This document shows positions 22,773 to 23,350 of a stretch of DNA of 51,170 bases, one piece after another. The DNA comes from Candidatus Nomurabacteria bacterium (GTDB lineage: Bacteria; Patescibacteriota; Dojkabacteria; SC72; JAHDCA01). The first letter of the stretch is position 1, and every line of letters begins with the position of its first letter. Location: the NCBI GenBank assembly GCA_020632395.1, contig JACKFQ010000003.1, forward strand, positions 1 through 51,170, in the 5' to 3' direction. The position numbers were made by a program, and so were the translations under genes. The notes under the pieces are model-generated. The model was given only the letters and a program-made list of their open reading frames with translations. It was not told the DNA's origin and searched no databases.

Positions 22773-23263
22773 GTTGTACAGGGGATCCGTTGTGCAGAGA
22801 ACCCATTGTACAGGGAACCCGTTGTGCAGGGAACCGTTGTGCAGAGGACCCATTGTACAGGGAACCCGTTGTGCAGGGAACCGTTGTGCAGAGGACCGAT
22901 TGTACAGGGAACCCGTTGTACAGGGGATCCGTTGTGCAGAGAACCCATTGTACAGGGAACCCGTTGTGCAGGGAACCAGTGGTACAGGGAACCAGTGGTA
23001 CAGGGAACCAGTGGTACAGGGAACCAGTGGTACAGGGAACCAGTGGTACAGGGAACCAGTGGTACAGGGAACCAGTGGTGCAGGGAACTCGTTGTACAGG
23101 TAACCCGTGGTGTAGAGAACATTTAGTTATCAGTGGCGCTGAGAACAGGATGTAATCAGTGGTACAGAGAACAGGAAGTAACTAGTGATGCAGGGGATAG
23201 GAAGTAACTAGTGGTGAAAGGGGATAGGAAGTAACCAGTGATGAAGGGGATAGGAAGTAACCA
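22773..23263. repeat. Composite tandem array (about 22 x 15-16 bp plus 5 x 26-27 bp) derived from the tRNA-Tyr 3' end
   Basis: Six perfect GTGGTACAGGGAACCA units at 22979-23074; the tRNA 3' end reads TGGTGCAGGGAACAGGAT on this strand. Confidence 0.93.
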
Positions 23264-23264
23264 G

Positions 23265-23350
23265 TGGTGCAGGGAACAGGATTCGAACCTGTGTAGCCGT
23301 GAGGCGTTGGATTTACAGTCCAATGCGTTTGACCGCTCCGCCATCCCTGC
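23265..23350 (-). tRNA. tRNA-Tyr(GTA)
   Basis: GCAGGGA/TCCCTGC acceptor, TTGGA-CTGTAAA-TCCAA anticodon arm, long variable arm, TTCGAAT T-loop, CCA. Confidence 0.96.

Follow-up and report, generated by a model that had tools for sequence, protein, structure and literature searches.

The single tRNA-Tyr gene of a Dojkabacteria genome (Candidatus Nomurabacteria bacterium, GenBank assembly GCA_020632395.1) is directly followed by a tandem array built from copies of the gene's own 3' end. The gene lies in a 51,170-nt stretch of contig JACKFQ010000003.1, positions 1 to 51,170, to which we refer as the window. The units of the array descend from the tRNA tail, fall into two length classes, differ in number and kind between strains, and form a C-rich, G-poor strand; none of the relatives that were compared carries such an array. 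We consider it probable that the array is a young, lineage-specific, noncoding, hypervariable minisatellite, which arose by tandem duplication of the tRNA tail followed by slippage or unequal exchange, and which may serve as a Rho-loading trailer. The host is a small uncultured wastewater bacterium with a genome of 0.99 Mb in 12 contigs.

Head-to-tail units directly behind tRNA-Tyr

The array begins at the base after A76 of tRNA-Tyr, on the same strand and with no spacer. Segmentation on the tRNA strand resolves it into 28 head-to-tail units running from 23264 to 22758, a count taken from the assembly. Six long units next to the gene are followed by 22 short ones, the subdivision of which is given in Table 1. 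Tandem Repeats Finder (TRF) reports a 16-nt array at 22768-23108 (21.4 copies, 83% matches, score 395), which is the top-scoring tandem repeat of the genome, and a separate 26-nt array at 23114-23281. The six perfect copies of CTGGTTCCCTGTACCA lie at 23075..22980. Among the higher-order blocks that follow, the first and the last (both A) are identical, and B differs from C by one base. Every unit opens with CTG, as does the unique flank CTGTTTCAAAC past the last unit.

A preliminary description of this DNA, made from the sequence alone, had reported a tandem array from the 3' end of tRNA-Tyr, which TRF, segmentation, and shuffled controls all confirm. Its 22 short units, six perfect copies, and higher-order blocks stand; the long units number six instead of five, giving 28 units in all, and the boundary it set at 22773 cuts off the last unit, the true end being 22758. 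ACCA-like ends were said to be kept in many units. This holds for 8 of the 22 short units, which end in CCA, while the remaining 14 end in CAA.

The 3' end of the gene, in which CCA is encoded, reads ...ATCCTGTTCCCTGCACCA / ...ACAGGTTCGAATCCTGTTCCCTGCACCA. Aligned with the 3'-terminal 27 nt of the tRNA, which comprise T-stem, T-loop, acceptor 3' strand, A73, and CCA, the 26-mers show 18 to 19 identities out of 27, and the 16-mers match the tail without its T-loop segment (CAGGTT joined to CCCTGCACCA) at 11 to 14 of 16 positions. Mean alignment scores were 8.33 for the 26-mers versus -0.42 +/- 0.97 for shuffled sequences, and 8.68 for the 16-mers versus 1.59 +/- 0.38. Similarity to the tail, for which the preliminary description had proposed this control, is thus far above chance in both unit classes. 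Of all tRNA tails in the genome, that of tRNA-Tyr matches both classes best, with a narrow margin in the case of the 26-mers (8.33 versus 8.0 for tRNA-Leu(GAG)). When downstream copies of each tRNA's own last 14 nt were counted genome-wide, tRNA-Tyr gave 20 matches and the other tRNAs 0 to 1. By these alignments, the units come from the T-arm, the acceptor 3' strand, and the CCA of tRNA-Tyr.

The array in independent metagenomes

The organism was found in activated-sludge and wastewater metagenomes of nine studies (2016 to 2025). Logan contigs from runs X1, X3, X6, X8, X9, X11, and X19, which represent six studies, contain exact pieces of the array. Together these pieces cover the whole array, down to the 15-mers and the rare units TCGGTCCTCTGCACAA, and they recur across independent runs and studies dated 2019 to 2025; the rare units of blocks B and C are present on short Logan contigs. 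One contig of 396 nt, with a single difference, runs from the tRNA through the six 26-mers into the first 16-mers.

Mis-assembly of short repeats might have produced the array or its length. Short-read assemblies do break or collapse at this place: the Logan contigs fragment within the array, and an independent European Nucleotide Archive (ENA) contig assembled with MEGAHIT, L049, has 14 units versus 28. Its flanks and six 26-mers are identical to ours, and it contains just eight 16-mers, being 222 nt shorter, with one of the six perfect copies kept and blocks B-C-A missing. Because exact pieces of all array parts recur across independent runs and studies, and the 396-nt contig joins the tRNA to the six 26-mers, we regard an assembly artefact as very unlikely.

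The same data reveal strain variation. An unambiguous case is a 329-nt contig in run X11, which joins position 23129 to position 22976 via 34 other letters that replace 152 nt. On the tRNA strand, this variant has an extra 26-mer (CTGATTACATCCTGTTCTCTGCACCA) and a 26-mer resembling unit 6, after which the distal blocks follow directly; the strain lacks units 6 to 14 (23133..22980) and thus the six perfect 16-mers. Runs X6, X8, and X11 carry base changes at 23164 and 23168, through which the final 16 nt of unit 4 match the tRNA tail exactly, and other variants include single-base insertions. The array exists and its structure differs among co-existing strains, the number of units per molecule being an assembly figure.

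Absence from relatives and a variable neighborhood

Spaced tail ends were sought by pattern in 221 genomes of the class, and among these the genome of the window alone has a comparable array. None was present in the other 220, which gave four isolated single pattern hits; the one of the four that was inspected, in G092, falls inside a coding region. Comparison of the locus in related genomes, also proposed earlier, showed no array at the tRNA-Tyr loci of 12 relatives. These twelve Dojkabacteria share the gene order Thr(TGT)-Tyr-Thr(GGT)(-Trp), which by this comparison is the ancestral layout. None of them has a tRNA-Gly gene here, and the genome's own tRNA-Gly(TCC) is located elsewhere (C1:160312-160385), which disposes of the suggestion that the array sits where tRNA-Gly(TCC) normally lies. 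An identical 25-nt tRNA tail also occurs in Chloroflexota, archaea, and metagenome contigs, and no array follows it at the three loci inspected (L055, L056, and L058, from unrelated organisms). A TTTCAAA flank shared with relative G001 was considered as evidence for the ancestral junction and dropped as too weak.

The interval from tRNA-Tyr to tRNA-Thr(GGT) (window 20379-23264) was compared with loci L039, L040, L088, L090, and L093. It measures 3-92 nt in five Dojkabacteria and 777 nt in G023. Here it holds a small open reading frame (ORF) and an HD/PDEase-like orphan, and in the closest lineages it holds one gene type each: a dCTP-deaminase-like ORF, a class-I aminoacyl-tRNA synthetase, a helicase, or a PLD protein. 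Since the genes differ in each close relative and the interval is only 3-92 nt in others, it is an insertion hotspot. No recombinase is visible in the compared intervals.

Tandem duplication and slippage as the probable origin

The sequence of the units suggests the following course. A segment of ~27 nt, which begins in the T-stem of tRNA-Tyr and ends 3 nt beyond its CCA, would have been duplicated in tandem. The duplicated segment was presumably GTT...CCA-CTG, because the units and the unique flank CTGTTTCAAAC all open with CTG; its bounds, ..AG/GTT and ..TG/TTT, point to a short-microhomology duplication, and the junction CTG/GTT is consistent with slippage at a G/TT microhomology. Early copies would then have drifted into 26-nt units. 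One copy, either a 26-mer or the tRNA tail itself, appears to have lost a 10-11-nt T-loop segment between two GTT triplets, which would yield the 16-nt unit CTGGTTCCCTGYACCA. Replication slippage and unequal exchange may have expanded CTGGTTCCCTGYACCA into the higher-order blocks, with the six perfect copies as the latest product. Selection would act on the tRNA alone and leave the copies free to vary in the population. A run of six perfect copies and two A blocks without a difference indicate that the expansion was very recent. The preliminary description had offered slippage as one route of amplification, and it is the best explanation in view of the perfect tandem copies, the higher-order blocks, and the structural variants between strains.

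The other route it had offered was repeated integration and excision. More generally, the array could be the scar of site-specific recombination: an integrase targeting the 3' end of tRNA-Tyr would have duplicated the attachment (att) core, which was amplified later, and the variable block downstream would be a leftover. The insertion hotspot fits such a history, as do the perfect 16-nt tail copy that ends unit 4 in some strains and the presence in the genome of three tyrosine recombinases, of which one is encoded 200 nt away from the tail-duplicating element at tRNA-Pro(CGG). However, there is no integrase near tRNA-Tyr; matches to PF00589 are confined to contigs C5, C11, and C1, with none on the window contig. 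No tail copy that could bound an island was found on either strand in 20250-22757, so that none bounds the 2.4-kb downstream block. The units abut with no DNA in between, and microhomology slippage accounts for both the unit phase and the 16-mer. Viral contigs contain no array unit, and their 35 matches to the 16-nt tail are at roughly chance level by our estimate. Taken as a whole, a recombination scar is unlikely. Repeated integration and excision as the amplifier is not supported, given the lack of an integrase in the region, of DNA between the units, and of a distal tail copy at the 2.4-kb block, while an original seed laid down by integration is possible on this sequence evidence.

A candidate Rho-loading trailer

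Transcription probably continues from the tRNA genes into the array, which would form the 3' trailer of a Thr-Tyr transcript, because there is no terminator between tRNA-Tyr and the array, a promoter-like site lies before tRNA-Thr(TGT), and the dispersed hairpin CCATCCCGCTAACTTATAGTGCGGATGG found behind other tRNA genes is missing. The promoter-like site, TTGATT-16-TATAAT, is the probable start of this transcript. Our scan detected no terminator-like site from tRNA-Tyr through the end of the array, nor before 22573, and tRNA-Tyr is not among the 10 tRNA genes that have the CCATCCCGCTAACTTATAGTGCGGATGG hairpin behind them.

On the RNA strand, the array contains 35% C and 18% G, and its first 105 nt contain 37% C and 8.6% G; its peak excess of C over G lies in the top 0.1% of genome windows. 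It shows no excess RNA structure compared with shuffles (z = -0.27), and no inverted tail copy was found in it. It thus has what is expected of a Rho utilization (rut) site, namely, at least 70-80 nt of C-rich, G-poor, unstructured RNA 3' of a gene, and its composition is typical of a Rho loading region. Rho itself is encoded on C3 (PF07497, 91.5 bits, in a 425-aa open frame). The pyrimidine-rich, unstructured trailer, with C exceeding G, would load Rho, after which 3'-5' exonucleases would remove it. The E. coli tyrT transcript itself reportedly ends at a Rho-dependent site inside the repeats that follow the gene (Kupper et al. 1978). Rho-terminated tRNA operons with unstructured trailers that are trimmed by PNPase and RNase II are known from Escherichia coli (PMC2190699). 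We infer that the array is tolerated as a disposable Rho-loading trailer, and selection for that role is not claimed.

The array could instead be a protein-coding repeat, read in a 127-aa ORF (23122..22739, minus strand) or in one of three plus-strand ORFs. A protein, tpr, was reportedly once proposed as the coding product of the E. coli tyrT repeats, and ORFs of 106-127 aa are open across the present array in several frames. However, open frames arise automatically here, since stop triplets are missing from all six frames of the unit, and the frame is shifted by the 16-nt period with its 15-nt variants as well as by the single-base insertions in strain variants. There is no Shine-Dalgarno sequence before the ATG, and the array ORFs have no Pfam match above threshold. 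Coding is extremely unlikely.

A further alternative is that the trailer acts as RNA, its acceptor-strand and CCA-like copies delaying, as alternative 3' strands, the folding or maturation of tRNA-Tyr or serving as a sponge or decoy for enzymes or toxins with an affinity for its 3' end. The array adjoins the only tRNA-Tyr gene of the genome, and 16 of the 22 short units retain the full pairing potential (7/7) with the 5' acceptor strand of the tRNA. In equilibrium folding, the probability of the native acceptor helix, 0.98 at the outset, drops to 0.11 once a 160-nt trailer is added and to 0.004 once the trailer reaches 300 nt, while with random trailers it stayed at 0.89 or higher in 8 of 12 controls and at 0.77 in a ninth. 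On the other hand, the alternative pairing is predicted to gain merely 0.9-4 kcal/mol, and co-transcriptional folding would favor the native helix. No relative has the array, its unit sets differ between strains, and most of the short units have lost CCA. The first and the last of these points speak against a conserved function, of which there is no sign. A functional trailer RNA is quite unlikely, and by the folding model an RNA-level role is a minority possibility. Still more doubtful is a version in which the array would be a working part of tRNA-Tyr expression: its mimics would transiently capture the 5' strand or titrate the CCA-adding enzyme, exonucleases, or toxins, and copy number would tune the supply of tRNA-Tyr between strains. 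Were this true, the array would be a minimal, self-expanding form of the unexplained tRNA-linked repeats.

Features of the locus

Four tRNA genes were called in the window by ARAGORN and Rfam, all of them on the minus strand (Table 1). At an E value of 10 or less, Rfam returned just the two tRNAs and noise, and the array has no match to RtT RNA or another family. The 362-aa HD/PDEase-like protein matched only itself in a search of 5.8 billion clusters.

Table 1. Features of the tRNA-Tyr locus and tail-copy elements elsewhere in the genome (window positions unless a contig is named)
Feature	Position	Strand	Basis or remark
Six 26-27-nt units, diverged copies of the 3'-terminal 27 nt of tRNA-Tyr (T-arm, acceptor 3' strand, ACCA)	23108..23264	-	
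22 units of 15-16 nt	23107..22758	-	Segmentation
Nine 16-nt units, six perfect CTGGTTCCCTGTACCA among them	22964..23107	-	Tail with T-loop deleted (CAGGTT joined to CCCTGCACCA)
Twelve 15-16-nt units in four 47-48-nt higher-order blocks, order A-B-C-A	22774..22963	-	Every unit ends in CAA
Last unit CGGGTTACTTACACCA, hybrid of 26-mer head and ACCA end	22758..22773	-	Followed by unique flank CTGTTTCAAAC...
tRNA-Thr(TGT)	23514..23438	-	ARAGORN; Rfam, 70.5 bits; opens the cluster
tRNA-Tyr(GTA)	23350..23265	-	ARAGORN and Rfam; no second tRNA-Tyr gene in the genome; gave rise to the repeat unit
tRNA-Thr(GGT)	20378..20303	-	ARAGORN and Rfam
tRNA-Trp(CCA)	18513..18439	-	ARAGORN and Rfam
Promoter-like site TTGATT-16-TATAAT, upstream of tRNA-Thr(TGT)	23570..23597	-	Consensus scan, pattern match only
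Dispersed hairpin CCATCCCGCTAACTTATAGTGCGGATGG, directly 3' of tRNA-Thr(TGT)	23412..23440	-	CCA within the stem
Promoter-like site TGTACA-17-TACAAT, TG-extended, just 3' of the array, ahead of leader and small ORF	22670..22698	-	Consensus scan, pattern match only
Intrinsic-terminator-like hairpin and T-run	22552..22573	-	First one downstream of tRNA-Tyr
Small ORF, 106 aa (69 aa from inner start)	22088..22408	-	No family match; in the lineage-specific block from tRNA-Tyr to tRNA-Thr(GGT)
362-aa protein	20785-21873	-	Weak PDEase_I / HD-type match (26.7 bits)
tRNA-trailing elements outside the window	C5:90222-90446, C5:106523-106747, C1:47949-48222, C1:174280-174540, C3:265-453		

Other elements behind tRNA genes

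About 40 copies of the dispersed hairpin CCATCCCGCTAACTTATAGTGCGGATGG are present in the genome, in both orientations and without a T-run. The window has copies at 23412-23440, 20285-20305, 18421-18441, 22054-22074, 1413-1431, and 6936-6956, with about 35 more elsewhere. The hairpin stands directly 3' of 10 tRNA genes with the encoded CCA in its stem, and it also stands at the end of protein genes. Copies 100% identical over 21-23 nt occur in another genus of the family (G001).

Five tRNA genes, those for Pro(CGG), Pro(GGG), Gln(CTG), Gln(TTG), and Ala(CGC), are each trailed by a hairpin-containing element of 95-200 nt. These elements start within or after the acceptor 3' strand and end in a 14-17-nt copy of the tRNA's own tail (imperfect in the case of Ala). 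The distal tail copy carries CCA at both tRNA-Pro genes and at tRNA-Gln(CTG). An antisense T-arm segment is present in the tRNA-Pro element, the one element checked for it. The tyrosine recombinase gene 200 nt from the Pro(CGG) element lies at C5:89552-90028.

The tRNA-Tyr array might be a degenerate form of such a structured tRNA-trailing element, either of the local Pro, Gln, and Ala kind or of the tRNA-linked repeat (TLR)/RtT kind of E. coli, reduced to its tail-copy end. Position and orientation are shared, every unit of the array ends in a tail copy, the five local elements end likewise, and TLRs are defined by a tail identity of 18-19 nt (PMC8144298). Against this, the units of 15-27 nt have no body, inverted tail copy, excess structure, or Rfam match, and the array has no sequence similarity to the Pro, Gln, or Ala elements. 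The local elements resemble the array in lying behind a tRNA gene of the same genome and ending in a tail copy, and differ from it in bearing hairpins and in occurring once per tRNA. Descent of the array from a structured element is improbable.

A genome rich in tandem repeats

TRF found 100 merged tandem-repeat loci (8.5 kb) in the 0.99-Mb genome, a density of 101 loci per Mb; the 400 kb sampled from the family-level relative G001 gave 16 loci, or 40 per Mb. Scores of 150 or more were reached by 30 arrays here and by 2 in that sample, so that compared with the 400-kb sample loci are ~2.5 times and high-scoring arrays ~6 times as dense. About half of the TRF arrays are not spanned by a long ORF, and several consist of 10-26 copies of 7-18-nt units. 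This richness cannot be put down to a loss of MutS or RecA, since both mutS and recA are intact here and present as in relatives. Because the ~10 of 53 non-ORF arrays that lie within 500 nt of a tRNA gene about equal the intergenic share near tRNAs by a rough estimate, we do not claim an enrichment of tandem repeats near tRNA genes.

Some repeat loci deserve mention in their own right. The second-highest TRF score in the genome belongs to 25.8 copies of the 10-nt unit TCAGGCAGTA at window 13497-13753. Adjoining arrays of 17 nt x 6.1 (CACTCTCCATAACTGAC) and 35 nt x 4.5 lie at window 37467-37721; no long ORF crosses either place. Contig C9 carries four tRNA-Arg genes together with 13 TRF loci.

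DISCUSSION

Several points weigh against the reading of the array as a young minisatellite and Rho-loading trailer. The 14-unit form on L049 could be a real allele or an assembler collapse, and the copy number is that of the assembly. The tail origin of the units, their arrangement, the polymorphism, the lack of the array in relatives, and the base composition are shown by the data; the duplication mechanism, the transcription, and the loading of Rho are steps that we infer from sequence. The word young rests on the perfect copies and on strain variation in place of a close outgroup, because the nearest relative is distant (62% identity in the neighboring M50 protease, the best homologue apart from the same species; the homologues of this protease bear the name Candidatus Dojkabacteria). 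The repeat richness of the genome comes without a repair defect to explain it. Finally, the 7/7 pairing of most short units with the 5' acceptor strand, by which trailer copies compete with the native 3' strand in the modeled equilibrium fold, makes an effect at the RNA level conceivable.

The preliminary description had likened the array to the repeats behind E. coli tyrT, and the comparison is apt. [quoted passage not shown] Like the 178-bp tyrT-tyrV repeats (RtT RNA, RF00391), the array is tandem, lies directly 3' of tRNA-Tyr in the same orientation, and has tail-copy ends. E. coli units, however, measure ~100-180 nt, combine an exact 18-19-nt tail with a body that bears no relation to the tRNA, and occur in one to five copies per locus, whereas the array has ~28 units of 15-27 nt with little beyond the tail, is diverged (11-19 matches), and is found in one species only. 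In place of 18-19 identical nucleotides, its units show 18-19 of 27 or 11-14 of 16, with one perfect 16-nt copy in some strains, and it has neither a body of ~100-180 nt nor a match to RF00391. We would thus describe it as a minimal, minisatellite-type variant of the E. coli repeats and not as a member of the TLR family.

Two further kinds of repeat invite comparison. With bacterial minisatellites and variable-number tandem repeats, the array shares head-to-tail units in the 10-60-nt range, higher-order blocks, perfect runs, strain variation, absence in relatives, and the presence of many loci per genome; unlike the usual examples, it was seeded by a functional part, the 3' end, of a tRNA gene that is essential and present in one copy, and it abuts this gene. 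With the att duplications made by integrases, it shares direct repeats of the 3' part of a tRNA beside the gene and a variable gene content downstream; unlike those that flank islands and prophages, it lacks an integrase, an intervening element, and a distal att copy.

The array is a curiosity of modest interest and no new molecular system. Its value lies in the light that it may shed on tRNA-linked repeats, which have been known since 1978 and whose origin and function are still not understood. It represents an extreme, stripped-down case, with ~28 units that consist of little more than the tRNA tail and are still changing between co-existing strains, and it suggests that plain tandem duplication and slippage can yield arrays of tail copies with no help from an integrase or a structured element. 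In practice, the array could serve as a natural strain marker for the Dojkabacteria population in wastewater plants.

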